DNA from: Shigella phage SHSML-52-1
Sequence record: KX130865
Length of the DNA stretch: 64,000 bases
Strand: one strand, 5' to 3'
Shown here: positions 23,113-58,638 of the stretch, one piece after another
Position numbering within the stretch: the first letter of the stretch is position 1
Layout: each line of letters starts with the position of its first letter
Notes under the pieces: generated by a model
The model's database searches: none
What the model saw: only the letters and a program-made list of their open reading frames with translations
What the model was told of the DNA's origin: nothing
Made by a program: the position numbers and the translations under genes

Positions 23113-23149
23113 TTTACATGCTAATAGGACTATGGTATAGTAGTCCTAT
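23113..23149 (+). promoter_or_regulatory. early promoter cassette (-35 GTTTAC, -10 TATAGT inside inverted repeat)
   Basis: GTTTAC 23113-23118, 17-nt spacer, TATAGT 23136-23141; arms ATAGGACTA 23124-23132 and TAGTCCTAT 23141-23149. Confidence 0.6.
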
Positions 23150-23171
23150 CAAAATTAATTAGGAAAATAAA

Positions 23172-23480
23172 ATGAAAACCTACAAAGAATTTATCAATGA
23201 AGCGGCTGCACCAAAGACATTCGTTATTAATACTCAAGCGAGTCTTGATGATGAGTACGCGGAAGCAATTCTGAGGTCACTTGCTAAGAACGGCGTTGAA
23301 GTAACTGCATCAGACTTTAAGAAAGGGGCTCCCGAGATGTTTATTTCTATAGTTAAAGGATCTAAAGCTAAGATTAAATCATCATTCGGAGTTGCTCGTA
23401 CCGATCAAATCGACAGTCATGACTTTAAACAAACCGGCGTTAAACGGCAGAATACGATTGCATCACGCGGAATAAAATAG
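23172..23480 (+). CDS. capsid-targeted internal protein-like (CTS MKTYKEFINE)
   Basis: 102 aa; N-terminal MKTYKEFINE with I-N-E gp21-type cleavage context; body unrelated to the other CTS proteins. Confidence 0.6.
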   Translation: MKTYKEFINEAAAPKTFVINTQASLDDEYAEAILRSLAKNGVEVTASDFKKGAPEMFISIVKGSKAKIKSSFGVARTDQIDSHDFKQTGVKRQNTIASRGIK

Positions 23481-23492
23481 TTTATAAAACCG

Positions 23493-23530
23493 TTTACTTT
23501 TAGATAGGGTAGTGATACTATTACCCTATC
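23493..23530 (+). promoter_or_regulatory. early promoter cassette with 9-bp inverted repeat
   Basis: GTTTAC 23493-23498; TACTAT 23516-23521; arms GATAGGGTA 23503-23511 and TACCCTATC 23522-23530. Confidence 0.6.
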
Positions 23531-23549
23531 AACTACTGAGGAGAATAAA

Positions 23550-23735
23550 ATGAAACGCGCTGAACTGATTCGTAATGTTGCTGTAGTAATTGCTTCAATG
23601 GCTTTTAGTTTTTCGATGTTTGTAGGATTCATTTGTGGACTACTGACAACAACTGAAAATTCTATCTCATTGGTAGTAGCATTTCTAATCGGTTTAATCG
23701 CTATTGTTATGGATAAAATTGCAAAAGGTGAGTAA
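23550..23735 (+). CDS. small membrane protein (two predicted TM helices)
   Basis: 61 aa, hydrophobic stretches VAVVIASMAFSF and LVVAFLIGLIAIV; GAGGAG SD. Confidence 0.5.
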   Translation: MKRAELIRNVAVVIASMAFSFSMFVGFICGLLTTTENSISLVVAFLIGLIAIVMDKIAKGE

Positions 23736-23736
23736 A

Positions 23737-24099
23737 ATGAAATATCACGTATATGCGGATTTTGAAGCAAATCCTTCTAAAGACCCGGATTGTCGTTTAT
23801 TCCGTAATCCGTTTGATTCAGCAGCTCAAGCATGGGCCTGGATTAAAACTTGTACTCCTTCTTACACTTTCTTTGAAGTGGTAGATGATAATGGTGTTTT
23901 GCATCCAGAACCTACAGAAACTATTAATTTCCTTCTGTTTGCTGGTTATGACTGTTATCCTCTTGGTGGTATTGACGACCTTGTTGCTACAGGAAAAACT
24001 GTTGAAGCTCTTCGCGAAATTTATAAAAACGCAGAAGAAAATTTTGACTGGTATCATATTGTTGATGCTCATACCTTTGAAGTGGTGGAACATTCATGA
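23737..24099 (+). CDS. hypothetical protein
   Basis: 120 aa from ATG 23737 (MKYHVYADFEA) 2 nt after the upstream stop. Confidence 0.55.
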   Translation: MKYHVYADFEANPSKDPDCRLFRNPFDSAAQAWAWIKTCTPSYTFFEVVDDNGVLHPEPTETINFLLFAGYDCYPLGGIDDLVATGKTVEALREIYKNAEENFDWYHIVDAHTFEVVEHS

Positions 24100-24386
24100 T
24101 TCTTTATGCTAAGGTAAAATCCGTTGAGAATGGATATGAAAGCGATCAACGTGCAGCTAAAGCACTAGTCGATTACTATGGTATTTTGACCCACTTTGAA
24201 GTTGAAAAGGTTTACGTCGACCGTTCATCTTCACAGGTTAAATTACTTTGGGAAGACCGCAAATTTAATAGTGTGAACTTTGATTTCTTTATTGAAACAG
24301 AAAAAGGTCCTCTTGAATATGATATTTTCAAGAATCCTTTAAATCTTGAATGTATTGAGTATAATTACATTAATATGGTACGGTGA
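24096..24386 (+). CDS. hypothetical protein
   Basis: 96 aa; ATGA start-stop overlap with upstream gene. Confidence 0.5.
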   Translation: MILYAKVKSVENGYESDQRAAKALVDYYGILTHFEVEKVYVDRSSSQVKLLWEDRKFNSVNFDFFIETEKGPLEYDIFKNPLNLECIEYNYINMVR

Positions 24387-24390
24387 GTAA

Positions 24391-24906
24391 ATGAATATTT
24401 GTTTAGGCAGTACAATTCCTAAGGGTTATGTAATTGATGTCACTACCTATGAAAATGACGGGGACAACTATAAAACCAAAACATTGTTTGAAGTGGAAGA
24501 GCATGAGCTCCAACAGTTTAAATATCTCTTGAAGAAATTTAAGAGTCGTCATTCCAGCACTAAAGCTGAACGTTACTGTGGTAATACACCATTCAGTGAC
24601 TGCTCGCTTATTATCTACGAATATCTGGTTGAAGGGCTGTTCTCAGACCAACTCCGACCAGAATTTATTAAAAAGGTCTTTGGCATCGAAGTAGACCTTG
24701 GTGATAAATCTGAAGAAGACGAAGCCCGCGTATTCGACCTGTTCTTTGTGAAAGGCGATGAGATATCTCAAGGACTTATTGATATTCTTGGCTATGCTTC
24801 TGAATACTATGATTACGATTTCTTGCGTGTAGTTGAACGTGTCGAATTTGCTTATATTGAAGAAGAAATTGTTTTGCCAACTGTTAAAATGATTGATTTG
24901 CTTTAA
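24391..24906 (+). CDS. hypothetical protein
   Basis: 171 aa ORF tightly packed after upstream gene. Confidence 0.5.
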   Translation: MNICLGSTIPKGYVIDVTTYENDGDNYKTKTLFEVEEHELQQFKYLLKKFKSRHSSTKAERYCGNTPFSDCSLIIYEYLVEGLFSDQLRPEFIKKVFGIEVDLGDKSEEDEARVFDLFFVKGDEISQGLIDILGYASEYYDYDFLRVVERVEFAYIEEEIVLPTVKMIDLL

Positions 24907-24985
24907 GAATTATGTGTTATTATTAATTCATACCCTCTATTACCAAAGGTGCTCTAAAGTGCCTTTCATAATAGAAAGTTATTAA

Positions 24986-26417: not shown

Positions 26418-26446
26418 GTTTACTTCTTCCCTAGATGTGTTACTAT
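26418..26446 (+). promoter_or_regulatory. early promoter (-35 GTTTAC, -10 TACTAT)
   Basis: GTTTAC 26418-26423, 17-nt spacer, TACTAT 26441-26446. Confidence 0.55.
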
Positions 26447-26474
26447 AGACCTATCAAAACATGGGGAGAATATT

Positions 26475-26978
26475 ATGAGTCTTTACACTGAACTGAATAA
26501 AAAATCTGAAGAATCTGCTGAAACTATTTTTAAAAACGTGCAAAAGCGTATTTTGGAAAAGATGTACGATGCAGCATCTAAAGGTGAAAAATCTTGCCGG
26601 TTTCCGATGAGGTGTTCTTCTGATTTATGCGCAAATACTATTGAATGGCTGGAAAGTGAAGGTCTTACGGTAGAGAAAAACCCGGCGACTTCTATTGACA
26701 GTGAATCATATATTAGTATTTCTTGGGATAAATCAAGGGTAGAAGAGAAAGATGGTGATTGGGTTGTAGATGTTAAAACTTCTGATGGTGGACGTTCTGT
26801 TGAAGTTTCAGCTGTAGTTAAAGGTACCCACGAACAAAGGACTTGGGGTTGGGGTGGTGAAGAAAAAGAAATTGTTCTTAGTGTGATTGCCAGGTCAACT
26901 AGTAATAAAATTGCACAAAGCATCATCTATGCTGCATGTATCGAAGCTGGAAAAATTTGCAAAATTAAAAATAAATGA
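26475..26978 (+). CDS. hypothetical protein
   Basis: 167 aa; SD GGGGAG; downstream of early promoter. Confidence 0.55.
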   Translation: MSLYTELNKKSEESAETIFKNVQKRILEKMYDAASKGEKSCRFPMRCSSDLCANTIEWLESEGLTVEKNPATSIDSESYISISWDKSRVEEKDGDWVVDVKTSDGGRSVEVSAVVKGTHEQRTWGWGGEEKEIVLSVIARSTSNKIAQSIIYAACIEAGKICKIKNK

Positions 26979-27035
26979 TGTACAAACACCATGGACGGTG
27001 TTACTATAGACCTATCAAATCAAGAGGAAAACAAA

Positions 27036-27263
27036 ATGGCTACAGTTAGTATTGATGTCGTTGATTATGAATACACAGAAGAAGTTATTCGCAACCGTCA
27101 CCCTGAAGTTCGTATTGATTCAGTACAAGATTCCAAGTTCTGGACAACTGAGCTTAATCTGAGTGGTCCTTATGAAGCTGTTAAGAAGTTCATGGTTGAA
27201 GAATACTGCGAAGGCATGCACCCCGAAGACGCCAAGTTTTATGTCAATTTGATTAAAAAATAA
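27036..27263 (+). CDS. hypothetical protein
   Basis: 75 aa from ATG 27036 (AAGAGGAAA SD). Confidence 0.5.
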   Translation: MATVSIDVVDYEYTEEVIRNRHPEVRIDSVQDSKFWTTELNLSGPYEAVKKFMVEEYCEGMHPEDAKFYVNLIKK

Positions 27264-27298
27264 TTTACAAACTCTTGAGAGCAGAGTATAATGCTCTC
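27263..27298 (+). promoter_or_regulatory. early promoter cassette (-10 TATAAT flanked by GAGAGC/GCTCTC)
   Basis: ATTTAC 27263-27268; TATAAT 27287-27292; arms 27277-27282 and 27293-27298; near-duplicate of the cassette at 57854. Confidence 0.55.
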
Positions 27299-27334
27299 AT
27301 GGATAATAAACCCACTAATTGAAAAGGTAATAAT

Positions 27335-27928
27335 ATGAACACTCTGAAGAAACTTGTTGAATTCATTCGCACTAAACTGGGTACTGCCATGGCTAAAAAT
27401 CTGACTGTCGAAGAACAGTATAACGCAGCTGCAGATAAGTTGATTACCCAAATCAAAGAACTAAAAACGGCTTCTGTTAAATCTATTAATGAAGAAAAAC
27501 GTATTCGCGAACTTGTTAATGAAAAGAACAAGCAAGCCGCTTCTAAGGAACGTGAAATTCGTAAACTCCTGGCTGAAGGACAAGATGTTACCATGCATGC
27601 TAAGCTTGGTCTTCTGTATCGTCGAACTGCCGAACAACTTAATACAAAAGCTGACGGGTATGCCGCTATGCGAATTGAAATTGCTCGTAAGGTGGTTGAA
27701 CTTGACGATGCTCGTCAGAACCTGGCAATCAAACTCGAATACATTCGTGAAACTCGAGCAGCCAATGCCCTTGGTATCTCTACCGCTGACGATGTAATTG
27801 AAATCGCTGCACTGACTAAGGTTGATATCGAAGACACTCTGACTCGTGTTGAAACGTTCAATGGCACTCCAGCTGGTGTCGAAACCACTTCTGCTGATGT
27901 ACAAGAATATATTAACTCTTTGAAATAA
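27335..27928 (+). CDS. coiled-coil protein, possibly PspA/IM30-like
   Basis: 197 aa, almost entirely heptad-like helical sequence with an amphipathic N-terminus; family assignment is a guess. Confidence 0.5.
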
Positions 27929-28944: not shown

Positions 28945-29282
28945 CCGTATGGCCTTCTCTTGGTGAGAACATTCTAATTTTTATTATGAGTATTGGCATG
29001 GGATTTGCCTTTGGATTAGTTGGATTTCTTATTGACGGCGTTGTGTTAGGATTTATAGGGAACACTGGTGGATTCACAGACCAATGGCAGGACTTACGGT
29101 ATACCCAAGCCTTTGCATCCATCGCATCATTTTGTACTGTAGTCTATTTTTACTACGATTTTATAAACCACAACAAGAAAAATAAAAAGGTTTACGCTTC
29201 TCAAATGATTAGTTATAATGAACTCCTAGCTAGACGTGAAAATGAAACAATCGAAAACTTTATTAAGGAATGTAGAAAATGA
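28923..29282 (+). CDS. small membrane protein, FIKECR-tail family member B
   Basis: 119 aa; hydrophobic N-terminal half; ends ...ENFIKECRK with ATGA overlap to next gene. Confidence 0.55.
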   Translation: MQKPQLLTVWPSLGENILIFIMSIGMGFAFGLVGFLIDGVVLGFIGNTGGFTDQWQDLRYTQAFASIASFCTVVYFYYDFINHNKKNKKVYASQMISYNELLARRENETIENFIKECRK

Positions 29283-30077: not shown

Positions 30078-30116
30078 GTTTACAACAAGATAGGGCTATG
30101 TTATAGTAGTCCTATC
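30078..30116 (+). promoter_or_regulatory. early promoter cassette (ATAGGACTATGTTATAGTAGTCCTAT family)
   Basis: GTTTAC 30078-30083; TATAGT 30102-30107 within an imperfect inverted repeat. Confidence 0.55.
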
Positions 30117-30135
30117 AAAACAAATGGAGTCCACA

Positions 30136-30375
30136 ATGATTTATTACGAAAGTATCGGAACCAAAGTGGTTGGTAAAACCATTACTCGTGAAAAGTTTGC
30201 AAAGATATTCGATATGCGTTATAAAAAATCTGAACACAAAGGCATCCGATTCGAAGATGCGCACTGTACAATTTGCCCTTATAATGAAGACATAAACGGT
30301 ACAATCGTTCCATTGGTAGAGGCTTCACATGATGACCTCTGGGATGAATATAATATCGCATGTCGTGAAATTTAA
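30136..30375 (+). CDS. hypothetical protein
   Basis: 79 aa from ATG 30136. Confidence 0.45.
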   Translation: MIYYESIGTKVVGKTITREKFAKIFDMRYKKSEHKGIRFEDAHCTICPYNEDINGTIVPLVEASHDDLWDEYNIACREI

Positions 30376-31372: not shown

Positions 31373-31402
31373 GTTTACAAGGTCTGTAGTTGTTGATACT
31401 AT
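31373..31402 (+). promoter_or_regulatory. early promoter (-35 GTTTAC, -10 TACTAT)
   Basis: GTTTAC 31373-31378, 18-nt spacer, TACTAT 31397-31402. Confidence 0.55.
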
Positions 31403-31440
31403 AGACCTATCAAAACAAATGAGTGAATGGAGATATAAAA

Positions 31441-31641
31441 ATGACTACTTTGAATAAACGTTTCGGTAAAGCTAAACCTGGTTGTGCAGCAGAACGTCGT
31501 TATGTTTTCGCTCAGTTAGAAGATGTAGAGTATCAGATTAATCAAGTTCACATTACTGGTATCGAGCCTATGTGTGGCCTTGAAGCTCTTCGTGAAGTTC
31601 GTGATGGGTATCGTCGTGACATCGAAGAAATGTCAAAATAA
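31441..31641 (+). CDS. hypothetical protein
   Basis: 66 aa from ATG 31441 (GGAG SD). Confidence 0.45.
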   Translation: MTTLNKRFGKAKPGCAAERRYVFAQLEDVEYQINQVHITGIEPMCGLEALREVRDGYRRDIEEMSK

Positions 31642-31642
31642 G

Positions 31643-31679
31643 TGTACAAACTGATAGGACTATGTTATAGTAGTCCTAT
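31643..31679 (+). promoter_or_regulatory. early promoter cassette (ATAGGACTATGTTATAGTAGTCCTAT family)
   Basis: GTGTAC 31643-31648; TATAGT 31666-31671; arms 31654-31662 and 31671-31679. Confidence 0.55.
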
Positions 31680-31699
31680 TAAAACATGAGGAGAATATT

Positions 31700-32005
31700 A
31701 TGAAATTAGGCGAAACCAACCGAATTGGTCTTTTAACAATATTTGTATCACTTTTTTACGCAGCTCTTTCTGTTGCAGTATTACAAAAGGCTTACAGTAT
31801 GGATGGTGTTCCTGGTTTTGTATTCTTATCGCCGTTTTTGCTATTCGTTGGAGCATTGTTATTATATGCCACGACTAGTTTCGACCATAACGTCTGGGTC
31901 AATTATAAATGTAAATTGTCTGAAGAAGAACACGCAGAAGCTCGTAAAAAAGCTATTGAATCTACCAATCTAGAAAATTTCATTAAAGAATGTCGAGGAA
32001 AATAA
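31700..32005 (+). CDS. small membrane protein, FIKECR-tail family member C
   Basis: 101 aa; two hydrophobic helices; ends ...ENFIKECRGK two nt before the next ATG. Confidence 0.55.
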   Translation: MKLGETNRIGLLTIFVSLFYAALSVAVLQKAYSMDGVPGFVFLSPFLLFVGALLLYATTSFDHNVWVNYKCKLSEEEHAEARKKAIESTNLENFIKECRGK

Positions 32006-34667: not shown

Positions 34668-34697
34668 GTTTACTTCCTCTAAGGGTTTTGATACTAT
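34668..34697 (+). promoter_or_regulatory. early promoter (-35 GTTTAC, -10 TACTAT)
   Basis: GTTTAC 34668-34673, 18-nt spacer, TACTAT 34692-34697; upstream of denV. Confidence 0.55.
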
Positions 34698-34724
34698 ACA
34701 TTCATCAACTACTTGGAGGAAATT

Positions 34725-35138
34725 ATGACTCGTATCAATTTAACACTTGTTTCTGAACTGACCGATCAACATCTTATGGCTGAGTATCGTGAATTACCAC
34801 GCGTATTTAGTGCAGTCCGTAAACATGTCCAAAACGGTAAACGTGTAAAGGATTTTAAAATCTCTCCAACATTTATCTTAGGCACAGGTCACGTAACATT
34901 CTTTTACGACAAACTCGAATTTTTACGTTTACGTCAAATCGAGCTAATTGCCGAATGCTTGAAACGTGGTTTCAAAATCAAGGACACGACAGTCCAGGAT
35001 ATTTCCGACATCCCTGCCGAATTTCGTAATAATTATGTCCCGTCCGAAGCGTCCGTTGCGATAAGTCAAGCACGCTTAGATGAAAAAATTGCTCAACGTC
35101 CTACTTGGTACAAATACTATGGTAAATCAATTTACTAA
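34725..35138 (+). CDS. denV: endonuclease V (pyrimidine dimer DNA glycosylase)
   Basis: 137 aa beginning [28 protein letters not shown], near-identical to T4 DenV; GGAGG SD. Confidence 0.95.
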
Positions 35139-35408: not shown

Positions 35409-35438
35409 GTTTACGCTTAAGTATTAATATGGTATAAT
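35409..35438 (+). promoter_or_regulatory. early promoter (-35 GTTTAC, -10 TATAAT)
   Basis: GTTTAC 35409-35414, 18-nt spacer, TATAAT 35433-35438. Confidence 0.6.
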
Positions 35439-35469
35439 TACTCTATCAAAACAAACAAGGAAACAAAAA

Positions 35470-35772
35470 ATGAAAACATATCAAGAATTTATTACTGAAG
35501 CGCGAGTGAGTGCAGGTAAATTAGAAGCCGCTATAAATAAAAAGGCCCATTCATTTCATGATTTGTCCGATAAAGACCGTAAGAAACTTGTAAGCCTTTA
35601 TATTGACAAAGAGCGTATTCTCGCTCTTCCTGGCGCTAATGAAGGTAAACAGGCCAAGCCTTTGAATGCTGTCGAAAAGAAAATTGATAACTTTGCTTCT
35701 AAATTCGGTATGTCTATGGATGACCTTCAGCAAGCGGCTATCGAAGCAGCTAAAGTAATTAAAGGTAAATAA
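35470..35772 (+). CDS. capsid-targeted internal protein-like (CTS MKTYQEFITE; IPII-sized)
   Basis: 100 aa, same length as T4 IPII; I-T-E cleavage context. Confidence 0.6.
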   Translation: MKTYQEFITEARVSAGKLEAAINKKAHSFHDLSDKDRKKLVSLYIDKERILALPGANEGKQAKPLNAVEKKIDNFASKFGMSMDDLQQAAIEAAKVIKGK

Positions 35773-35885
35773 CAGTTTACTTTCTCCTAGAATTGTGATA
35801 GTATATTCATAATTACTTAGAGGGGTAAATACAGAAATGGACAATTCATGCGCCACGGAATGGCCCAACCTAAAAGAGAAACTAA

Positions 35886-41557: not shown

Positions 41558-41563
41558 AACGTT

Positions 41564-44698: not shown

Positions 44699-45679
44699 AT
44701 GTTCAACGTTCAAATCAAAAAAGGTATCTATCGTAATAACGAAATCTCTGGTTCTTATGTTGCCACAAAGACATGGTTCCCGGCAAAGCTTAATCCTGAA
44801 TGTTCCCACTTAGGTGACGGTAAAATTTTCGTTATGATTGATGGTTCTGAACGTGGAGTATGGGTCTTCAAATCAGACATCGTAATGGAAGGAGTTGAGA
44901 CATCACCAGTTGCAGTTGTTGAAAGCACTGAAGATATGAAAACTCGTATCAACAAACGCTTTAAAGTAATGAACATGATGACGAATGGTATTATCGATGG
45001 CAAAATTTGTTCACTCATTATTTCAGGTGCAGCCGGTATTGGTAAGACGTATTCTCTGGATAAAGCACTTAATAATGCTAATGATAACGGTTTCATCAAA
45101 TACAAAAGCATTAATGGTAAAATCTCTGGTATTGGCCTTTACGAACAACTTTGGCTCAACCGTGATGCAGACAGCGTTCTCTTAATCGACGACGTTGACG
45201 TATTCTCGGATATGGACATCTTGAACCTTCTTAAAGCAGCATTAGATACTGGTGATAAACGCAAAGTTTGCTGGAGCACTGCGTCATCTTATCTCGATGA
45301 TAAGGGTATCGATAAAGAATTTGAGTTTGAAGGTACTATCGTTTTCATTACAAACGTTGATATTGATAAAGAGTTAGAACGCGGTTCGAAACTTGCTCCA
45401 CACCTTCAAGCTTTAGTATCTCGTTCAGTGTATTTGGACCTTGGAGTACACTCTAATGAAGAGATTATGGTTCGAGTTGAAGATGTAATATTATCTACTG
45501 ACATGATGCAGAAACGTGGCTTGACTGATGCTGAAACGTACAAAGCATTGTCCTGGATGAAGGCTAACGTATCTCGTCTTCGCAATGTATCATTACGTAC
45601 GGCTCTTTATGTAGCAGATTTTATTTCAACTGATAAAGATGGTTGGGAGGAAATCTCTGAAGTAACTTTATTGAAATAA
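44699..45679 (+). CDS. AAA+ ATPase-like protein
   Basis: 326 aa from ATG 44699; Walker A GAAGIGKT, Walker B VLLIDDVD. Confidence 0.65.
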   Translation: MFNVQIKKGIYRNNEISGSYVATKTWFPAKLNPECSHLGDGKIFVMIDGSERGVWVFKSDIVMEGVETSPVAVVESTEDMKTRINKRFKVMNMMTNGIIDGKICSLIISGAAGIGKTYSLDKALNNANDNGFIKYKSINGKISGIGLYEQLWLNRDADSVLLIDDVDVFSDMDILNLLKAALDTGDKRKVCWSTASSYLDDKGIDKEFEFEGTIVFITNVDIDKELERGSKLAPHLQALVSRSVYLDLGVHSNEEIMVRVEDVILSTDMMQKRGLTDAETYKALSWMKANVSRLRNVSLRTALYVADFISTDKDGWEEISEVTLLK

Positions 45680-46107: not shown

Positions 46108-46136
46108 GTTTACAAGGTCTATGGTTATGTTATTAT
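46108..46136 (+). promoter_or_regulatory. early promoter (-35 GTTTAC, -10 TATTAT)
   Basis: GTTTAC 46108-46113, 17-nt spacer, TATTAT 46131-46136; AGGTCTAT/ATAGACCT arms. Confidence 0.55.
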
Positions 46137-46163
46137 AGACCTATCAACTACTGGAGGTAAAAC

Positions 46164-46691
46164 ATGAACGCTAAAGATATTTTCAACCTGGTAAATTATA
46201 ACGACGGTAAATTTAAATCTGAAGCACAAAGCAAGTTCTTTAATGACGTTGCTTATGATAACGAGATTACCGTGGACGGAGGTCAGATTTTCAAATCTCG
46301 CTGGAATTGGATTGTTATCATCGATTCAGTTGGAATTGTGGAAGTCTACAAAAACACTAACAAAAAACGTACATTATTCTGGTCTCGTGAAACTAACGAG
46401 CAGTACAAAAAGGATAAAGCGTCTCGTTTATCCAAAGTAACCCAGGAAGATATCGAGTTTATCAAGAAAGATATCGAGATGTACGAAAATTTAATCGCTG
46501 AAGACCAGGCAGTACTCGACAAGTTTGATGAAATTAAAGCTTCTCGTGAAATCCCTGACTTCATGAAAGAAACAGTAAACGAACGATACGCTCTCACTTC
46601 AGAACGTATTGCAAACTATACAAAACAGAAAGCAGAACGTATTAGTACTCTTCGGAAATTTGAAGAACGTTTAAAGACGGTTCACGCATAA
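46164..46691 (+). CDS. hypothetical protein
   Basis: 175 aa; GGAGG SD. Confidence 0.55.
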   Translation: MNAKDIFNLVNYNDGKFKSEAQSKFFNDVAYDNEITVDGGQIFKSRWNWIVIIDSVGIVEVYKNTNKKRTLFWSRETNEQYKKDKASRLSKVTQEDIEFIKKDIEMYENLIAEDQAVLDKFDEIKASREIPDFMKETVNERYALTSERIANYTKQKAERISTLRKFEERLKTVHA

Positions 46692-46753: not shown

Positions 46754-47749
46754 ATGAGTATTACATCTGATGCGGTAAAACATGAAATTAACGGTTTATG
46801 TGCTTCACAGATTAAAGTGTGGTTTAAAGACCATAATGATCGCAGAGCACTTAATTACGAGCAAATTGCTATCCAAGTTCATCAATTACTGACTAGTAAA
46901 TTTGATTTTCATATGCCGTCTGAAATCTATACTAATCTGCCGCTAGCACTTATTAAAGCGTGTAAAGGTTATGGAAAATCAATGGCTGATGGAATCTTCA
47001 GCGCGCTGAATAAACTTAACGTTCTGTCGATGATTAACTCTAACAACATCCTGCGTAATCTAGGATGTACTGATTTGTTCGGTCGTGAACAGGGTAAAAT
47101 GCCTTTGAAATGGATTGTTGCTCATCTTAACGAGAACCAAACACGTTTTATGGCCGTAACAGCACGTTTACAAATGGGCCTAGATCGTCAGATGAACTTT
47201 AAAACTCATCCACGTTATTCAGGTTCAACAGACTTTTATAAATGTGAGCTTCAAAAGGTCGGTGGCAAAACTGTCTTAGTAGTTCGTGTAACGTTTGAAG
47301 GACGACGTCAAGGATATTTTGACCTAATCGGCTCTGGTCTTAAACATTGCGGATTTATCGACGAAGTTGATATCAAGCGAGACGGTATCCAATACCGTAT
47401 TGGGTATGTTTGTACTCTTAAAGAAGAGATTTCAGGACCGGCACCAGGACTAAAAGATGTTAGATATAAAAACGAGTTCGTTGAAGAAATAAAAGAAGTT
47501 GAATATGATATCAACCAAGAAGATGCTCTTAAAGACCTTATTGATGAACTGAACCAAGACGTTATTCCGGTTCAGAAATTTGAATCAAAACATGCTGAGC
47601 AAATCAAATACTTTGAAGCTTTGATTAACGAACTTAATGTAACTATTCAACAGACTGACGATGAAATCTCACGATTAGCAGGCTTAAATGGTAAAAATAA
47701 AACAGAACGAGCTAATCTTATTCAAGTAGTAAAACTTCTTAAGGAATGA
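46754..47749 (+). CDS. hypothetical protein with C-terminal coiled coil (331 aa)
   Basis: Long ORF; last ~70 aa heptad-rich. Confidence 0.6.
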   Translation: MSITSDAVKHEINGLCASQIKVWFKDHNDRRALNYEQIAIQVHQLLTSKFDFHMPSEIYTNLPLALIKACKGYGKSMADGIFSALNKLNVLSMINSNNILRNLGCTDLFGREQGKMPLKWIVAHLNENQTRFMAVTARLQMGLDRQMNFKTHPRYSGSTDFYKCELQKVGGKTVLVVRVTFEGRRQGYFDLIGSGLKHCGFIDEVDIKRDGIQYRIGYVCTLKEEISGPAPGLKDVRYKNEFVEEIKEVEYDINQEDALKDLIDELNQDVIPVQKFESKHAEQIKYFEALINELNVTIQQTDDEISRLAGLNGKNKTERANLIQVVKLLKE

Positions 47750-47779
47750 TGTACAACCAAGGATGGTTGGAGTATAATA
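47749..47779 (+). promoter_or_regulatory. early promoter cassette, duplicate A (TACAACCAAGGATGGTTGGAGTATAAT)
   Basis: 27 nt at 47752-47778 identical to 48772-48798; -10 TATAAT 47774-47779; AACCA/TGGTT hairpin between -35 and -10. Confidence 0.6.
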
Positions 47780-47804
47780 AATTTTTCAACATGAGGAATA
47801 TAAA

Positions 47805-48764
47805 ATGGCTTTTATTACACGTAGAGAACTTATCAAAGAATTTACCTCGAACGCATATACTCCAGGACCTAATCCTATCCGTATGCCTGTAAAAACTCCT
47901 GAAGAGATTGAGGAAATCTGTTCATATTATGGGATTACTTCTCGTATGTTTACTCAATTTGAATGTGTTACTAACACGCCCGTTAAAGAGTTCATTAAAA
48001 ATGGTGAGTTCAGCCGTTTATTAGCCAAACAGAAACTTCGTAATTTTTGTATTGGCGGTGAAGGTCAATATTTCGCTAAGCAGTTCCGGAATAACCTTAA
48101 CAATCTGATGGCCATTGCTTCTCGTATTCGTCCTCAAGCAATTAACATGAAACATTTAAAATATACTTACGATAAGTTAGAAATCATGGTTATCAGCGAG
48201 AACGAGTTCACTCTTACGTATAAACCTAAGAATGATAACGTTGCTCGTGTATTCCACCAAGCGTTGGAAGTTTTAGGTGATAATATCCACCAGATTAAAG
48301 CAATTTATTCTCGTGAGCTTAATATTATCGACCCTATCAAGAATAAGGGCCATATCGCTATCCAGGCTCGTGTATCTATTGGTAAAAAGGTTCCTGCGCC
48401 GTGGTGGCACAAAGACTCTGAATACTATCAAAATCTTAAAAAGGAAAATGCAACATTTGAAGCGTCAATTACTGCAACCCCAATTGGTAATGCTGAAGTT
48501 CTAGGTTCATATTCTACTTCGGGTAAATCAATGTTTAAAGGTTTGCCAAATGTGTGCAAACTGTCTGCAGTAAAACTAAATGTTTCTAATGACCTTCTTC
48601 CGGTCGAAGATTACCATTACAATCAAATCAAGGCCACTATGGACCAACTGTCTGTTGAACTTGACAAAGCACAAGCTAAGCTTCGTGATGCTCAAAGTGT
48701 TGTAACGAATCTCCAGTTGCAGTACTCTAAACTTTTTAACGCAATGAATGCATTAAAATCATAA
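47805..48764 (+). CDS. hypothetical protein with C-terminal coiled coil (319 aa)
   Basis: Downstream of duplicated promoter cassette A. Confidence 0.6.
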   Translation: MAFITRRELIKEFTSNAYTPGPNPIRMPVKTPEEIEEICSYYGITSRMFTQFECVTNTPVKEFIKNGEFSRLLAKQKLRNFCIGGEGQYFAKQFRNNLNNLMAIASRIRPQAINMKHLKYTYDKLEIMVISENEFTLTYKPKNDNVARVFHQALEVLGDNIHQIKAIYSRELNIIDPIKNKGHIAIQARVSIGKKVPAPWWHKDSEYYQNLKKENATFEASITATPIGNAEVLGSYSTSGKSMFKGLPNVCKLSAVKLNVSNDLLPVEDYHYNQIKATMDQLSVELDKAQAKLRDAQSVVTNLQLQYSKLFNAMNALKS

Positions 48765-48768: not shown

Positions 48769-48799
48769 GTTTACAACCAAGGATGGTTGGAGTATAATG
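48769..48799 (+). promoter_or_regulatory. early promoter cassette, duplicate B
   Basis: GTTTAC 48769-48774; TATAAT 48794-48799; same 27-nt core as duplicate A. Confidence 0.6.
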
Positions 48800-48826
48800 A
48801 ATCTATCTTAACTAGAGGAAAATATT

Positions 48827-49777
48827 ATGACACGTTCACATTACATTGAATACTTTGCCGGTCTTATCGCTAACGTTCATGCTCAGCGCGCTTCTGGTGC
48901 ACTAGGATTTGATGTTCCACACCGAGATGTAGTAAGTGGTATTCTTCGCGATTTTGGTACATACACAGGCCAAGAAAATCATATCTGTAAAGATACTCAG
49001 AATGCATATTCTCATTCATTAGGGACACTGCTTCAATGGTTCAAACGTTCTCGTTTATTATCTTCTACTGTAGCTCGCGATAACATTAAAAACTTTATGA
49101 AACCGAGCTTTATTAAATCTGTGACATCTAAAACCGATTTGGTTGAATTCACTATTGTTAATGATGTTAAAAAGACTCATTTAGCTGATTGGTTATCTAC
49201 CATTCCTGAAACTAAATTTGCTGATAAATTTGCTTGTGAATTCAATAACCAAGTGAATATGCTTTTTAAACATTCTTGTAAATTATTCACGGGCGGTGAT
49301 GGTCGTACAAATAAAGTTCATGTTAAAGATTGGGTTACTGCAGTATTCAAACCAACAGGTAATGGTAACGCATCATTATCAATTGATATCCAGGTTCCTT
49401 ATTACTACTCACGTAATCTCGGTACCATGAAAGCTGAAGAAATTAATAAGCATAACAAAACCGTTCGTTCATTGTCTTATAAACTTATTACATTGTTAGA
49501 GACTATGGATGTTGTTGAAACGTTCGACGAATCCGAAGATAACGGTTCAATGTTATACAGTTCTCGTACCCGAATTAAGCTGAAGAACCCTAATACGTAT
49601 AAACCTAAGCTTATTAAAGAACCTAAAGCAGAAAAGGTTGATATCATGGCTGAAGAACGTGAGTACCTCAAATCTCGTCTGAAAGAAGTCGAAGCCCAGA
49701 TTGCAGAACAAACTAAATCGTTAAAAGCTCTGAATGCGAAAGCGGACGGTTTACGAAATGCCATTGAGGTGTTATAA
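48827..49777 (+). CDS. hypothetical protein with C-terminal coiled coil (316 aa)
   Basis: Downstream of duplicated promoter cassette B. Confidence 0.6.
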   Translation: MTRSHYIEYFAGLIANVHAQRASGALGFDVPHRDVVSGILRDFGTYTGQENHICKDTQNAYSHSLGTLLQWFKRSRLLSSTVARDNIKNFMKPSFIKSVTSKTDLVEFTIVNDVKKTHLADWLSTIPETKFADKFACEFNNQVNMLFKHSCKLFTGGDGRTNKVHVKDWVTAVFKPTGNGNASLSIDIQVPYYYSRNLGTMKAEEINKHNKTVRSLSYKLITLLETMDVVETFDESEDNGSMLYSSRTRIKLKNPNTYKPKLIKEPKAEKVDIMAEEREYLKSRLKEVEAQIAEQTKSLKALNAKADGLRNAIEVL

Positions 49778-50082
49778 TGAACCTACGTCTTCTAGAGGAT
49801 ATTGATATGAGCACTAATCATGGCTTAGTTAAGTTTATTGATGATAGTTCAAAGATTGAATTTGTTCAGCGAGATAAAATTCATGGTGAAGAAGAGTTCG
49901 TTCCTCCAGCATGGAACGAAATAATGAAAATGGTTGAACGACGTGAAAATGCTGCCAAATCGGCAGCAAAACATCCATGTCCGGAATGTGGAACTATCCA
50001 AGTCCAATTGGTTAACTGGACCAGTGATAACTTGAAATTGAAATGCCGTAAATGCTTCCACAAATTTGAGAGAACATTATAA
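49777..50082 (+). CDS. zinc-ribbon protein
   Basis: 101 aa; CPECG...CRKC four-Cys motif. Confidence 0.5.
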   Translation: MNLRLLEDIDMSTNHGLVKFIDDSSKIEFVQRDKIHGEEEFVPPAWNEIMKMVERRENAAKSAAKHPCPECGTIQVQLVNWTSDNLKLKCRKCFHKFERTL

Positions 50083-56605: not shown

Positions 56606-56634
56606 GTTTACATCCTCAATAGTTGTGTTAAGAT
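56606..56634 (+). promoter_or_regulatory. early promoter (-35 GTTTAC, -10 TAAGAT)
   Basis: GTTTAC 56606-56611, 17-nt spacer, TAAGAT 56629-56634. Confidence 0.45.
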
Positions 56635-56662
56635 TAAACCATCTACTATAGAGGAAAATAAA

Positions 56663-56911
56663 ATGATTAGTTTAGATTCAAAGAAAGTTGTTCTAACCCT
56701 TAAAGTTAATGACGAGCGTCCGGTATTCGTTACCATTTCCGATTTGCATGTTGAAATTGCTAATGGTGTTCGTACTTATCAAGCAAATAAAACTCATTGG
56801 GACTATATCCCAATGTTGACGCTTACTCAGCGTTTAGAATCAATCGGTCTTAAAGACCTTTCAGTAAGTGAAGTGAATTTTATCAAACGCATTGTATCAA
56901 TCAACCTCTGA
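56663..56911 (+). CDS. hypothetical protein
   Basis: 82 aa from ATG 56663 (GAGGAAAA SD). Confidence 0.5.
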   Translation: MISLDSKKVVLTLKVNDERPVFVTISDLHVEIANGVRTYQANKTHWDYIPMLTLTQRLESIGLKDLSVSEVNFIKRIVSINL

Positions 56912-56918: not shown

Positions 56919-57212
56919 ATGGGTAAAACGTATCGTCGTAAAGATTTGAAAGTTCGTGATTACGACTATTTTGGTAAACGTAAAGCTCCTGACGGTGTTA
57001 GCCACAAAGACATGGTTGAAAACATTTTCCGCTCAGATAAATGGAAACGTATGAAAGGCGTTGATTCTGAAGTCAAGAATGAAATGAATCGACAACTCCG
57101 CAAAGAAGTTCGTAAGTTGAAAAAAGATGTTTACAGTAAAGAAGAGTATGATTATAATACTTCTCATACTGAAGCCAAACGTAAAGCTAACGAATGTTAC
57201 CGTTACAGTTGA
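56919..57212 (+). CDS. highly basic small protein (possible nucleic acid binding)
   Basis: 97 aa from ATG 56919; Lys/Arg-rich. Confidence 0.5.
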   Translation: MGKTYRRKDLKVRDYDYFGKRKAPDGVSHKDMVENIFRSDKWKRMKGVDSEVKNEMNRQLRKEVRKLKKDVYSKEEYDYNTSHTEAKRKANECYRYS

Positions 57213-57219
57213 GGAAATT

Positions 57220-57354
57220 ATGAATATCAAACGAATGCTTTTTAAGCAGGGATTATATACTTTAAATGTTAATCCAAAGGGTGATACAACTAAATGGTCT
57301 GTAAATGACTGGATTAAGTTCATCGATGAAAATGGGGCGTGGAACACAAAATGA
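57220..57354 (+). CDS. hypothetical small protein (44 aa)
   Basis: ATG 57220 with GAGGAA SD. Confidence 0.35.
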   Translation: MNIKRMLFKQGLYTLNVNPKGDTTKWSVNDWIKFIDENGAWNTK

Positions 57355-57551
57355 ATCCTGAAAATATTGTGTCATGGCAACTTCGTGAAGAACGAGCCGA
57401 ATTCTTTGCCAACATGAAACTCAATGGTGTTGAGGACGAAGACTTCTTACGCTGGTTCTGGATTTACAAATACAAAGAATGCCAGCACGCTGTACTACTG
57501 ACTTGTGCAGTTATGTACGAAGGCTGGAAAGGCGCTAAAAAGTTCGGTTAA
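57351..57551 (+). CDS. hypothetical protein
   Basis: 66 aa; ATGA overlap. Confidence 0.45.
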   Translation: MNPENIVSWQLREERAEFFANMKLNGVEDEDFLRWFWIYKYKECQHAVLLTCAVMYEGWKGAKKFG

Positions 57552-57614
57552 TAATGTACAACGATAGGAAGACATGTTATTATCTTCCTATCGTCTTAAA
57601 ATTAGGAAAATATC

Positions 57615-57854
57615 ATGGCCCAAGAATTAGATTTTATCAAATTCAAAAAACACCTCGACGTTAAAATTGGGGATTCAAATGTTAGGATTGAGTATGACAT
57701 TTTAACAGATGCTATTACTGTTAGTTGTGATGGAAATAGTTTCAGCTTCGATACAACCGAAAACAAATACCCAATCTATAAAGGCATCTTTGATATGGGT
57801 GTTGATATTACTCCACGTGATACAAATTACTTACTTTTCATGCTTAAAAAATAA
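57615..57854 (+). CDS. hypothetical protein
   Basis: 79 aa; AGGAAAA SD. Confidence 0.5.
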   Translation: MAQELDFIKFKKHLDVKIGDSNVRIEYDILTDAITVSCDGNSFSFDTTENKYPIYKGIFDMGVDITPRDTNYLLFMLKK

Positions 57855-57890
57855 TATACAAACTCTTGAGAGATGAGTATAATTCTCTCG
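57854..57890 (+). promoter_or_regulatory. early promoter cassette (near-duplicate of 27263 cassette)
   Basis: ACAAACTCTTGAGAG...GAGTATAAT...CTCTC shared with 27266-27298; -10 TATAAT 57878-57883. Confidence 0.55.
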
Positions 57891-57920
57891 TTGGATAATA
57901 AAATAACCGAGGAAAATAAT

Positions 57921-58253
57921 ATGTCTACTAAAATCAAAAACGTAGTTAATTCTTTCGCTTTCGATAAAGTTGTTGCTCTTCTGGAATCTGGCAATATTGT
58001 TACTCCTCAAGTTCTTGACGCATGGGAATTCCGTCTTTATGAAATCATGCAAAAACACGACCAGAAAATTGGACGTAATTCTATTCGTGAAATTCTAGTA
58101 CAATATATTCTTTCTGAATTTGACGTTGCTGCGTTTGGCGTTGAATCTAAAGCTTATCAGAAACATGAAATCTCTGAAAAGACTATCCGTCGTATGAAAA
58201 ATCAACGTAAGAAAAAATTCGTTGACCTGAAAATTGTTAAGGCGGTAAAATGA
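57921..58253 (+). CDS. hypothetical protein
   Basis: 110 aa from ATG 57921 (GAGGAAAA SD). Confidence 0.5.
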   Translation: MSTKIKNVVNSFAFDKVVALLESGNIVTPQVLDAWEFRLYEIMQKHDQKIGRNSIREILVQYILSEFDVAAFGVESKAYQKHEISEKTIRRMKNQRKKKFVDLKIVKAVK

Positions 58254-58477
58254 GCGTATTAACAGAAACTTTGATTAATGACCTGCGTCTAGCTGGTTAC
58301 GAAGTTGGTACAAATAGCCTAGGTCTTCCTCAGATTGAAGGTCCTGGATTTATTCTTGAATACGAATTCAAACGATGGTGGTTATATGCTACGGTTGACG
58401 ATGCGTTGAATATTGATTTTGTTGACCAATTTGATTCGTTGGATGCTGCCTTATTTGCAGCAAAGGAAATAGAATGA
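58250..58477 (+). CDS. hypothetical protein
   Basis: 75 aa; ATGA overlap. Confidence 0.5.
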   Translation: MSVLTETLINDLRLAGYEVGTNSLGLPQIEGPGFILEYEFKRWWLYATVDDALNIDFVDQFDSLDAALFAAKEIE

Positions 58478-58573
58478 AACTATCTCAAATCGCTATAACC
58501 GAAGAAAAGTTTGGTGAATTTTAAGTCGACGACTTTATAAAAGTTATGTATCTTTGATATTGATAGTATCTCG

Positions 58574-58597
58574 TGCTTTAAGATAGGTCTCTAAATA
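58574..58597 (+). promoter_or_regulatory. middle-promoter-like element (MotA box TGCTTTA + TAAATA) upstream of gene 55
   Basis: TGCTTTA 58574-58580, 11-nt spacer, TAAATA 58592-58597; a TATAAT at 58604-58609 sits inside the ATAGGTCT/AGACCTAT inverted repeat. Confidence 0.45.
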
Positions 58598-58638
58598 TTA
58601 TGATATAATAGACCTATGAATTGAGCCAAGAGGTACTT

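Follow-up and report, generated by a model that had tools for sequence, protein, structure and literature searches.

T4-type early promoters as probable portable cassettes with a base-pairing element in the accessory region of a Mosigvirus genome

We consider it likely, with a probability of roughly 0.7, that the T4-type early promoters in the accessory region of this phage are portable cassettes, which act as homology patches and carry a selected base-pairing element. The stretch of DNA analysed (the window, 64,000 nucleotides) comes from a Mosigvirus, an RB69-like phage of the T4 family with 98.5% identity to phage ATK47. A search of the window for GTTTAC-N17/18-TANNNT returned 21 matches where 1.9 were expected, 20 of them on the plus strand between 22.7 and 57.2 kb. 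The curated set, which takes in the -35 variants GTGTAC, ATGTAC, ATTTAC and ATATAC, comprises 25 plus-strand cassettes from 22757 to 57923, all co-oriented with the early transcription unit and preceding accessory genes (internal proteins, denV, regB, nrdC.x and orphan ORFs). A preliminary description had counted about 20 cassettes from 23113 onwards in nearly every intergenic gap; the family it recognised is real, but its first member lies further upstream, at 22757, and its extent was overstated, as cassettes occupy about 21 of the 35 gaps that measure 40 nt or more, the remainder being taken up by tRNAs, terminators, MotA-type middle promoters or an intron-like insertion.

Each cassette is about 60-70 nt long and consists, in order, of an A-rich, UP-like upstream region (73% A+T), a -35 GTTTAC, a 17-18 nt spacer, TGn (an extended -10, present in 20/25), a -10 TAnnnT, CCTATCAA, a Shine-Dalgarno (SD) sequence and ATG. 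With start sites predicted as 7 nt after the -10, CCTATCAA is conserved at the predicted start, the predicted +1 is A in 19/25 cassettes and the predicted 5' leader is about 21 nt; transcription most likely begins at the A of CCTATCAA. The SD resembles a RegB target of the GGAGAAnAAAA type. Orthologous T4 sites show the same architecture, among them regB, whose T4 promoter has been termed a typical early promoter (PMC3014915), and it is from the consensus and from this orthology to T4 early promoters that we infer promoter activity and start sites. On the same grounds, host sigma-70 RNA polymerase would fire the cassettes immediately after infection, so that each small accessory gene would have its own immediate-early transcript.

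Folding placed a repeat around or across the -10 in 17/25 cassettes, either as a short stem whose hairpin ends at about +2 without contact to the SD (class A, 11 cassettes) or as a long stem reaching the SD, in which the spacer of the promoter is paired to the SD of the gene that follows (class B, 6 cassettes; whole-cassette fold energies about -11 to -22 kcal/mol). The placement of the -10 inside an inverted repeat, proposed earlier for the family as a whole, does not extend to three cassettes in which the repeat is confined to the spacer (class C), nor to five in which folding found no convincing inverted repeat. The cassettes, together with the ipII ORF and with breakpoints called against eight related Mosigvirus genomes, are as follows.

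22757..22823, plus strand, class A cassette upstream of an ipI-like gene; -35 GTTTAC, -10 TACTAT, stem AGGATGAT..ATCATCCT (T4 has GATGAGGTA..TACCTCATC instead at the orthologous site); breakpoint against RB69 and phi25-307
23112..23174, plus strand, class A cassette of the GGACTA palindrome family upstream of an Ip7-like gene; stem 23124-23149; left edge of the 23154->23540 deletion in 6 relatives
23492..23552, plus strand, class A cassette upstream of trna.4; stem ATAGGGTAGT..ACTA(TTA)CCCTAT, in T4 with the 3' arm unchanged, the 5' arm at another spacer position and pairing retained; right edge of the Ip7 deletion
26418..26477, plus strand, class B cassette; spacer TTCTTCCC pairs with SD GGGGAGAA; preceded by a canonical terminator (26358-26392); breakpoints 26412 and 26467
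26978..27038, plus strand, class C cassette; -35 ATGTAC, ACACC..GGTGT within the spacer only; breakpoint cluster 26999-27028 in 6 relatives
27263..27337, plus strand, class A cassette upstream of e.6; -35 ATTTAC, -10 TATAAT in the loop of TGAGAGC..GCTCTCA
29190..29281, plus strand, promoter-like GTTTAC-N18-TATAAT within the preceding ORF, at its 3' end, and lacking a clear inverted repeat; ATK47, RB69 and WFL6982 conserve it
30078..30138, plus strand, class A cassette, GGACTA family; stem 30090-30115, including a single G.U pair
31373..31443, plus strand, class A cassette; stem AGGTCTGTAG..CTATAGACCT, including a single G.U pair; left boundary of the 31379->31654 indel (a 66-aa ORF) in RB69, pEK20 and phi25-307
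31642..31702, plus strand, class A cassette, GGACTA family; -35 GTGTAC, stem 31654-31679; right edge of the same indel
34668..34727, plus strand, class B cassette upstream of denV; spacer TTCCTCTAAG pairs with CTTGGAGGAA, SD included
35409..35472, plus strand, cassette preceding ipII; -35, TGn and -10 all match the consensus, inverted repeat not evident; breakpoints 35407 and 35469-35500
35470..35772, plus strand, ipII ORF between two cassettes; about 96% identity to T4 ipII
35775..35839, plus strand, tentatively class B cassette; -10 TAGTAT, spacer pairs with TTAGAGGGG; start codon 3' of it uncertain (vs.8 from 35886 or 35922); breakpoint cluster 35826-35871 in 7 relatives; the same cassette stands immediately 5' of denV in a T4-like contig (L081)
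37878..37937, plus strand, class B cassette upstream of regB; 13-14 bp stem TTCTCCTCTAGTTG..CAACTAGAGGAGAA enclosing the -10 and predicted start site
41508..41566, plus strand, class B cassette; spacer TCTCCTC pairs with GAGGAGA; preceded by a terminator (41470-41504)
41957..42017, plus strand, class A cassette, GGACTA family; stem 41969-41994, one position being G-C in ATK47, G.T in RB69 and A.C in the window
44350..44412, plus strand, cassette; -35 GTGTAC, no clear inverted repeat; preceded by terminator GGGCCTTCGGGCCC; segment 44300-44650 replaced in 5 relatives
44631..44701, plus strand, cassette upstream of nrdC.10; no clear inverted repeat; breakpoint 44650 within the spacer
46108..46166, plus strand, class A cassette upstream of nrdC.8; stem AGGTCTAT..ATAGACCT
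47749..47807, plus strand, class C cassette; -35 ATGTAC, 27-nt core, CAACCA..TGGTTG within the spacer; left edge of WFL6982 deletion 47802->48772, whose flanking alignments overlap by 53 nt
48769..48829, plus strand, class C cassette; 27-nt core shared with 47749; right edge of the WFL6982 deletion
49749..49809, plus strand, cassette with the -10 overlapping the upstream gene's stop codon; weak inverted repeat only
56606..56665, plus strand, class B cassette; -10 TAAGAT, CCTCaaTAG pairs with CTAtaGAGG; breakpoint 56659-56664 in 8/8 relatives
57554..57617, plus strand, class A cassette; -35 ATGTAC, stem CGATAGGAAGA..TCTTCCTATCG
57854..57923, plus strand, class A cassette; -35 ATATAC, stem GAGAGA..TCTCTC, outer pair T-A (ATK47), T.G (window) or C-G (RB69)

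Several cassettes share near-identical sequence. The 26-nt palindrome ATAGGACTATGTTATAGTAGTCCTAT occurs at 23124, 30090, 31654 and 41969 with 0-1 mismatch (0 expected), and this four-copy GGACTA family is absent from 30-78 kb of T4, the T4 region examined; 47752 and 48772 carry identical copies of the 27-nt core TACAACCAAGGATGGTTGGAGTATAAT; and the pair 27250/57841, belonging to the paralogous cassettes 27263 and 57854, shows 90% identity over 49 nt with a compensatory stem change (GAGAGC..GCTCTC versus GAGAGA..TCTCTC). The recurrence at distant loci noted in the preliminary description is confirmed for the palindrome and for the core, but its term "exact duplicates" is too strong for copies that differ by 0-1 mismatch or match at 90% over 49 nt.

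The coincidence of cassettes with gene-content breakpoints, on which that description had staked its proposal, holds across the eight related genomes: 17/54 breakpoints fall inside cassettes, which make up 5.2% of the sequence (p=1e-9), with the majority (37/54) lying outside them, and at the level of junctions a breakpoint is found at 15/25 cassette junctions versus 23/68 others (p=0.02). Three deletions run cleanly from cassette to cassette (23154->23540, 31379->31654 and 47802->48772), and chimeric cassettes occur in WFL6982 and in one further locus (L034). The genes flanking ipII are about 75% identical to T4, versus about 96% for ipII itself, and the high identity extends from the ATG as far as the -35 of the cassette that follows. 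Genes with their own promoter are perhaps freer to come and go, so enrichment alone is no proof that cassettes are a recombination substrate. Since a shared 30-60 nt is repeated many times, always in a single orientation, cassettes could act as homology patches at which related phages would delete, insert or exchange units of cassette plus ORF; this is the recombination pathway we infer.

The two arms of each repeat are matched to one another. A cassette's own arms form duplexes with a mean energy of -11.9 kcal/mol; the mean is only -7.9 when arms are exchanged among cassettes and -6.2 when spacers are shuffled (permutation p<=5e-5, z=-12.9), and in T4 and RB69 own arms also pair better than both controls, with different stem sequences. 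Stem sequences vary among cassettes and covary, with only ATAGG/CCTAT in common; compensatory changes are seen both between paralogues and between orthologues, and the 5' arm floats by several nt relative to a fixed 3' arm. Judged from sequence, the inverted repeat is a selected base-pairing element rather than a by-product of the promoter consensus. Tests of strand asymmetry for a structure at the RNA level, which are weak and treat orthologues that are non-independent samples, gave 30 G.T versus 22 A.C stem pairs and better folding of sense than of antisense RNA (p=4e-4). Class A hairpins have no clearly predicted effect on SD accessibility (predicted probability of an unpaired SD 0.48 in own transcripts versus 0.55 in read-through RNA), and our best guess is that they are structural insulators or 3'-end stabilisers between cistrons.

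The 5' arm of the inverted repeat, in whichever class, precedes the start site of its cassette, so the hairpin would form only in RNA reading through from an upstream promoter. For class B a function in translation can be proposed: in such RNA the spacer would act as an anti-SD and lock the ribosome-binding and RegB site in a helix, whereas in RNA from the cassette's own promoter the site would be free, tying translation to the proximal early promoter. The predicted probability of an unpaired SD is 0.53 in own transcripts versus 0.15 in read-through RNA for class B in the window, 0.44 versus 0.04 for denV and 0.65 versus 0.09 for regB. SD sequestration in read-through RNA is predicted in 28/29 distinct upstream regions of denV from other phages, and the regB pattern in 13/15 distinct upstream regions. 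The regB helix is kept in five lineages with different inner sequences, compensatory changes maintain its stem in T4 and in three other lineages, and almost every lineage retains the SD pairing of denV and regB, by way of at least two different designs. That compensatory changes have preserved the pairing in many lineages suggests that translation is confined to promoter-proximal transcripts, class B pairing probably silencing read-through RNA. RegB itself requires its GGAGAAUAAAA target to be single-stranded, and secondary structure inhibits it (PMC1702504).

It is unlikely that the repeats are instead terminators or attenuators blocking read-through from the upstream cassette, the original reading of PeSL stem-loops. 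An RB49/phi1 PeSL stem-loop did lower lacZ expression to roughly the extent that a strong terminator does (PMC2839356), and the window repeats are intergenic and just 3' of the upstream stop codon. However, their stems are AT-rich and followed by CAAAAC without a U-run, so the terminator role ascribed to PeSL stem-loops is unsupported here; a terminator scan detected none of them, and canonical GC-rich terminators with T-runs already precede three cassettes (26358, 41470, 44306). That the class B 3' arm is the SD itself points to translation and not termination.

We give still less credence to the repeats being functionless relics of cassette copying (palindromic junctions, slippage) kept by hitch-hiking, as might be argued from the five repeat-less cassettes that still look like good promoters and from natural variants with mismatches (41957 in the window, the chimeras in L034 and WFL6982); orthologous T4 and Mosigvirus sites carry independent stem sequences, one stem pair forms a T-A -> T.G -> C-G series, the trna.4 5' arm has moved with pairing retained, and the SD pairing at denV and regB has persisted in more than one design. 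Least probable of all is an action on DNA, as an operator for a dimeric regulator such as an early-promoter shut-off factor or as a cruciform for a structure-specific nuclease such as endonuclease VII, whose cleavage would make cassettes active recombination hot spots: the dyad overlaps the -10 as in classical operators, T4 early-promoter shut-off is only partly explained (PMC2988021, PMC3014915), breakpoints cluster at cassettes and stem A.C mismatches are about as frequent as G.T. Against it, stems differ between cassettes and covary around the shared ATAGG/CCTAT, a 5' arm floating against a fixed 3' arm is inconsistent with a rigid protein-binding site, and class B arms are defined by the SD. 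Loops of 6-30 nt with arms of 6-10 bp would also be poor candidates for cruciform extrusion.

Portable promoter cassettes of this kind belong to the PeSL phenomenon, which is known from RB49/phi1, T4/PST and T-even internal-protein loci (the last in Repoila et al. 1994, as cited in PMC2839356). As the preliminary description had suspected, they match the published definition of an AT-rich region, sigma-70-type early promoter, stem-loop, SD and start codon in hyperplastic regions (PMC2839356, PMC4122927), with the stem-loop mostly between -35 and -10 or overlapping the -10 (Arbiol 2010, PMC2839356). The same composite intergenic module is found in RB49/phi1, where dozens of copies precede orphan ORFs in hyperplastic regions and lie at indels or replacements between close relatives, but RB49 promoters are near-perfect TTGACA/TATAAT rather than GTTTAC, its stems are GC-rich (GGGG..CCCC) and terminator-like where those of the window are AT-rich, covarying and without a U-run, and mini-circles have been demonstrated for RB49/phi1 (PMC2839356). 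T4/PST PeSLs share the consensus (TTTACW-N17-TAYWAT; Comeau 2014, PMC4122927) and weak AT-rich stems (AGNA-loop-TCNT), and T4/PST and the T-even phages share the regions (IP loci and nrdC-tk-vs-e); the T4 cassettes found in this analysis have the architecture of those in the window, a Mosigvirus whose stem families, GGACTA among them, do not occur in the T4 region examined. In the T-even PeSL literature, Repoila et al. 1994 left aside, we found no description of anti-SD pairing or of covariation tests.

Class B also resembles the T4 e, soc, 49 and I-TevI hairpins, in which the SD is locked in long transcripts and a promoter inside the region coding for the 5' strand yields a shorter transcript that escapes the helix (PMC3014915). 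There, late or middle promoters delay expression, whereas the internal promoter of class B is early and the predicted effect would be that only the immediate-early, promoter-proximal transcript is translated. Morons and integron gene cassettes likewise carry single accessory genes with their own expression signals between exchange points marked by repeated boundary sequences; the window cassettes differ in that no dedicated recombinase or attC-like site is evident for them, in that they are co-oriented, and in that the boundary element is the promoter itself.

Over positions 23000–43000, megablast against phage genomes gave 98.5% identity to ATK47 and 96–97% identity to Shf125875, MM02, APCEc01 and others, with 208 records, some of them incomplete genomes, matching at ≥95%; the records of ATK47 and RB69 are classified in the genus Mosigvirus, Tevenvirinae. 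T4 is ~70–80% identical, in the alignable parts only. The window is oriented as the reverse complement of the standard T4 map, and its genes, modelled by a simple choice of ATG-first ORFs from which several true starts differ (e.g. 30136, 31441 and 44410), form two blocks:

1–19.2 kb, minus strand: baseplate and tail genes
19.3–64 kb, plus strand: genes 4, 2, 3, 1, 57A and 57B; the internal-protein (IP) and tRNA region; e, denV, regB, vs, tk, rI, nrdC.x, 49, nrdD/G, 55, 47 and 46

Rfam places two tRNA genes at 24986–25057 and 25064–25137, which by comparison with the ATK47, RB69 and MM02 annotations are tRNA-Met and tRNA-Arg; WFL6982 has 874 bp extra between them, annotated as a 222-aa hypothetical protein and a tRNA-Asn. 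A 1,040-bp insertion (52764–53805) interrupts nrdD and holds a 256-aa ORF (53015–53785) with GIY-YIG (SegE-type) and NUMOD1 domains, resembling the T4 nrdD intron with I-TevII. The insertion scores below the gathering score of the Rfam group I intron model, is missing from all eight Mosigvirus genomes compared, and aligns to T4 at ~85% inside one continuous block.

The motif GTTTAC-N17/18-TANNNT occurs 21 times against 1.9 expected, with 20 of the 21 sites lying in the 22.7–57.2 kb stretch of the plus strand; a generic sigma-70 scan returned 75 sites against 64 expected, without enrichment, so the T4-type motif alone is enriched. Once the -35 variants GTGTAC, ATGTAC, ATTTAC and ATATAC are admitted, curation yields 25 cassettes, in keeping with the roughly 20 related early-promoter cassettes of the preliminary description. 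These carry the GTTTAC-like -35, 17–18 nt spacer and TAnnnT -10 of T4-type early promoters. Like the published promoter-early stem-loop (PeSL) modules of T4-family phages, they are repeated, intergenic, located in hyperplastic regions, and end in the Shine-Dalgarno (SD) sequence and ATG of ORFs that are small or orphans. Pfam assigns no family to the majority of the downstream proteins that were tested. The claim that nearly every gap holds such a module was too broad: ~21 of the 35 gaps of at least 40 nt contain a cassette, and the remainder contain tRNAs, an rnaC-like RNA, terminators, MotA-box middle promoters or the intron-like insertion. As first noted, a 26-nt palindrome recurs in four copies with 0–1 mismatch where none is expected, and a 27-nt core is identical at 47752 and 48772; the pair at 27250 and 57841 also recurs, but at 90% identity over 49 nt rather than exactly. 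A scan of viral contigs matched the exact 26-nt palindrome in five stretches of DNA.

Anchored on the -10, the consensus reads A-rich / GTTTAC / spacer / TGn / TAt.AT / ..CCTATCAA / ~21-nt leader / GGAG-type SD / ATG, with leader lengths computed one nucleotide short. TG stands at -15/-14 in 20 of the 25 cassettes, and the 25 nt 5' of the -35 have an A+T content of 73%, compared with 63% window-wide; the cassettes therefore combine an extended -10 with an A/T-rich UP-like region, the UP/-35/TGn/-10 arrangement of the ‘uber’ promoter (PMC2988021). The predicted +1, 7 nt past the -10, is an A in 19/25, and the SD context GGAGAAtAAAATG fits the published RegB target GGAGAAUAAAA (PMC1702504). The T4 regB promoter, described as a typical early promoter (PMC3014915), aligns in architecture with the regB cassette (37878, named like the others by its start coordinate), and such orthology to T4 suggests that the cassettes may be active right after infection via unmodified host RNA polymerase. 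The T4 GenBank record has no promoter features with which the cassettes could be paired, and no genome-wide map of transcription starts in T4 or RB69 turned up in the literature search; the promoters, start sites and RNA structures described here are all predicted.

RNA folding of each cassette identified an inverted repeat in 20 of the 25, surrounding the -10 in 17 of those 20, which places a stem-loop within or adjacent to the promoter as in PeSLs. The other five gave no convincing repeat on folding, and no Rfam family matched the cassettes. By fold, the repeats divide into three classes:

Class A, 11 cassettes, plus strand: 6–12 bp stem; 5' arm in the 3' half of the spacer; -10 in the loop or 3' arm; 3' arm ending at ~+2
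Class B, six cassettes (26418, 34668, 35775, 37878, 41508 and 56606), plus strand: 5' arm directly after the -35 (TTCTCCTC-like), paired to the SD (GAGGAGAA-like), the helix surrounding the -10 and start site
Class C, three cassettes, plus strand: small stem, entirely in the spacer

Complementarity is specific to each cassette. Spacers folded with their own downstream regions reach a mean of -11.9 kcal/mol, compared with -7.9 kcal/mol for swapped partners (permutation p ≤ 5e-5) and -6.2 kcal/mol for shuffled spacers (z = -12.9), and own-arm pairing is likewise favoured in T4 (n = 17) and in RB69 (n = 21). The stem upstream of ipI is GATGAGGTA..TACCTCATC in T4 and AGGATGAT..ATCATCCT in the window, T4 ipII is preceded by a 13-bp stem, and upstream of trna.4 the 3' arm is the same in both phages with the 5' arm at another spacer position. 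The paralogous cassettes 27263 and 57854 differ by compensatory changes (GAGAGC/GCTCTC vs GAGAGA/TCTCTC), and the outer pair of 57854 is T-A in ATK47, T.G in the window and C-G in RB69. We therefore consider the base pairing itself to be under selection, rather than to follow from the promoter consensus. A strand-asymmetry test (G.T vs A.C pairs; sense vs antisense folding energy) was weak, confounded by related sequences.

Class A hairpins may insulate cistrons from each other, stabilise the 3' end of the upstream message after its cleavage, or attenuate weakly. That the repeats act as a rigid protein operator is unlikely, because stem sequences differ between cassettes and the 5' arm varies in position with respect to the CCTAT arm, which is fixed. 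The repeats lack the features of an intrinsic (Rho-independent) terminator, a GC-rich stem and a U-run: no cassette repeat was among the terminator-like sites of a terminator scan, and the hairpins are followed by CAAAAC with no U-run, true GC-rich terminators with T-runs lying directly upstream of cassettes 26418, 41508 and 44350. Chance as the source of the repeats, motif and pairing is ruled out by the palindrome copies, the motif enrichment and the swapped-arm and shuffled-spacer tests.

In a subset of the cassettes the promoter spacer may double as an anti-Shine-Dalgarno element, a reading to which we assign a probability of about 0.45. Because the 5' arm of class B lies upstream of the predicted start, its covarying helix would form only in RNA read through from an upstream promoter, where the spacer would pair with the RegB-sensitive SD and leave the message untranslatable; a transcript from the proximal early promoter would lack the 5' arm, keep its SD free and so be the only one expressed. 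The site of RegB must be single-stranded, and structure inhibits the enzyme (PMC1702504), so read-through RNA would also resist RegB. For class B in the window, the SD is predicted to be unpaired with a probability of 0.53 in RNA from the cassette's own +1 compared with 0.15 in read-through RNA, whereas class A shows no difference (0.48 own, 0.55 read-through), the SD windows for both classes being offset by one nucleotide.

Orthologous leaders of regB and denV, the latter downstream of cassette 34668 in the window, were taken from viral contigs. At regB, a predicted spacer-SD helix of -14 to -23 kcal/mol is kept in Mosigvirus, T4-like phages and three further lineages while its inner sequences vary (CTAGTTG/CAACTAG, CTTGACTG/CAGTTAAG, CTTTATG/CATAAAG and TGTAAG/CTTACA), and the SD is predicted to be sequestered in read-through RNA in 13 of 15 regions (0.09 vs 0.65). 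At denV, sequestration in read-through RNA only is predicted in 28/29 distinct upstream regions with an early-promoter motif (0.04 vs 0.44), through two designs in which the 5' arm is either in the spacer or formed by the 3' part of the -10 plus the discriminator. Both sets include related sequences, so that their p-values are not independent tests, and more weight rests on the variety of structural solutions. From the regB leaders aligned with MAFFT, RNAalifold recovered only the seven SD-proximal pairs, because the stems lie in different registers in each lineage, and was replaced by per-sequence folds anchored on GGAG. We propose, on the strength of this cross-lineage compensation in predicted structures, that an anti-SD device may be the role of one stem-loop class. 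Upstream of regB in two viral-contig loci (L060 and L061) and of denV in a third (L079), an inner hairpin of class A surrounds the -10 (GGGCCAT..ATGGCCC or GATAGGGT..ACCCTATC) and is itself nested in the outer spacer-SD helix.

The hairpins of T4 e, soc, 49 and I-TevI (PMC3014915) follow the same logic. As in that family, the class B promoter lies inside the hairpin, with the 5' arm in the spacer or the -10/discriminator and the predicted +1 in the loop, and the SD and/or AUG would be paired in the long transcript, which among the cassettes applies to class B only. The T4 family, however, has a late or middle internal promoter that delays expression; the internal promoter of class B is early-type, and the cassettes would thus work like that family without being strict members of it. 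In the reviews and papers searched we found no mention of an early promoter inside an SD-pairing hairpin at regB or denV, though an earlier description is possible. If the anti-SD reading is true, the PeSL stem-loop would insulate at the level of translation instead of terminating transcription, regB, denV and similar genes would gain a strictly immediate-early, self-contained expression window, and the arrangement would be conserved over many T4-like lineages in at least two structural designs.

Positions 19–64 kb were aligned to eight Mosigvirus genomes (ATK47, RB69, MM02, mobillu, WFL6982, phi25-307, APCEc01 and pEK20) as megablast blocks at ≥88% identity, a breakpoint being the end of a collinear block that flanks an indel or replacement of at least 100 nt. 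The expected coincidence of cassettes with gene-content breakpoints was borne out: 17 of 54 distinct breakpoints lie inside cassettes, which with a 15-nt margin on each side make up 5.2% of the region (binomial p = 1e-9), and 14/25 cassettes have one. By gene junction, breakpoints occur at 15/25 with a cassette compared with 23/68 without (odds ratio 2.9, p = 0.02). The cassettes thus sit, like PeSLs, at indel and replacement breakpoints between close relatives. Three events run cleanly from one cassette to another: the Ip7 gene is lost (23154 to 23540) in six genomes; a 66-aa ORF is subject to an indel (31379 to 31654) in three, RB69 carrying one hybrid cassette; and WFL6982 lacks a 319-aa DUF7235 gene (47802 to 48772), the flanking alignments sharing a 53-nt overlap. 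WFL6982 also carries a chimeric cassette made of the 5' half of the 27263 (e.6) type and the 3' half of the 57854 type, and the viral-contig locus L034 one made of halves of two T4-type cassettes. The other 37 breakpoints fall at plain gene junctions, homing-endonuclease insertions and the tRNA region, so cassettes are one exchange route among several, and their enrichment could partly reflect the dispensability of self-expressed genes. Depending on the phage, gene 57B is followed by no cassette, by one cassette and then trna.4, or by various cassette and IP units. In many T4-like phages (viral contigs L021–L033 and others) no cassette separates 57B from the first IP gene, which overlaps its stop codon (TAAAATG); whether this junction has a cassette thus depends on the lineage.

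Six ORFs (22821, 23172, 25887, 34385, 35145 and 35470) open with a common ~25-nt ATGAAAAC(C/A)TA..AAGAATTT encoding MKTY.EF, which we take to be the N-terminal capsid-targeting leader of internal proteins, as in T4. Breakpoints at 35175–35195, 35493–35500 and 22843 fall just within this leader, which may therefore be a second patch of homology beside the promoter cassette. The ipII ORF (35470–35772) is ~96% identical to T4 ipII from its ATG through the -35 of the next cassette, with the cassette upstream and the flanking genes unrelated to T4 or ~75% identical. Judged by this pattern of identity, ipII seems to have been exchanged recently between the Tequatrovirus and Mosigvirus lineages, with cassette elements as its bounds; lying between two cassettes, it would be a concrete case of inter-genus exchange, although RB69 is reported not to recombine with T4 (PMC6024577).

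PeSLs were described in RB49 and phi1 in work that assayed promoter, terminator and mini-circle activity (PMC2839356) and later extended to T4/PST and KVP40/nt-1 (PMC4122927); PMC2839356 also relates them to the repeated early-promoter/stem-loop elements that Repoila (1994) reported at the IP loci of T-even phages. A 43-bp direct repeat flanking IP genes is recorded in the annotation of ATK47, which derives from RB69. Since the composite element, its distribution and its link to indels all match, the Mosigvirus cassettes belong to the known PeSL kind, as their initial likening to PeSLs had it. Added here are the statistical arm covariation, the quantified breakpoint association, the absence of terminator features and the anti-SD proposal. 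The PeSL picture thereby reaches RB69-like phages with explicit statistics, repeated early-promoter cassettes bounding gene-sized modules in the hyperplastic regions of T4-family phages, and a stem-loop function is suggested: one class would allow only early transcripts from the proximal promoter to be translated and to be cut by RegB. To phage engineering the cassettes offer compact ‘plug-in’ expression units of natural origin, and recombination points that can be predicted.

A canonical terminator family (GCCCCTTCC..GGTTGGGGC followed by a T-run) has three copies, at 25816–25850, 26358–26392 and 41470–41504, two of which directly precede early-promoter cassettes; a breakpoint shared by four relatives (25841–25868) sits at the first copy. 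Middle promoters of the MotA-box type (GCTTTA, 11–13 nt, TATAAT or TAGAAT) lie in other gaps, at 46692–46753, 60089–60159 and 63345–63386, the last with an 8-bp inverted repeat GATGTGGT..ACCACATC around its -10 that recalls the ‘PmSL’ elements described for nt-1. Upstream of gene 55 (58540–58620), a half-cassette with ATAGGTCT..AGACCTAT around TATTAT/TATAAT and no GTTTAC -35 adjoins a site at which seven of the eight relatives have an extra 184 bp, and resembles the ‘degraded PeSLs’ of Comeau et al.
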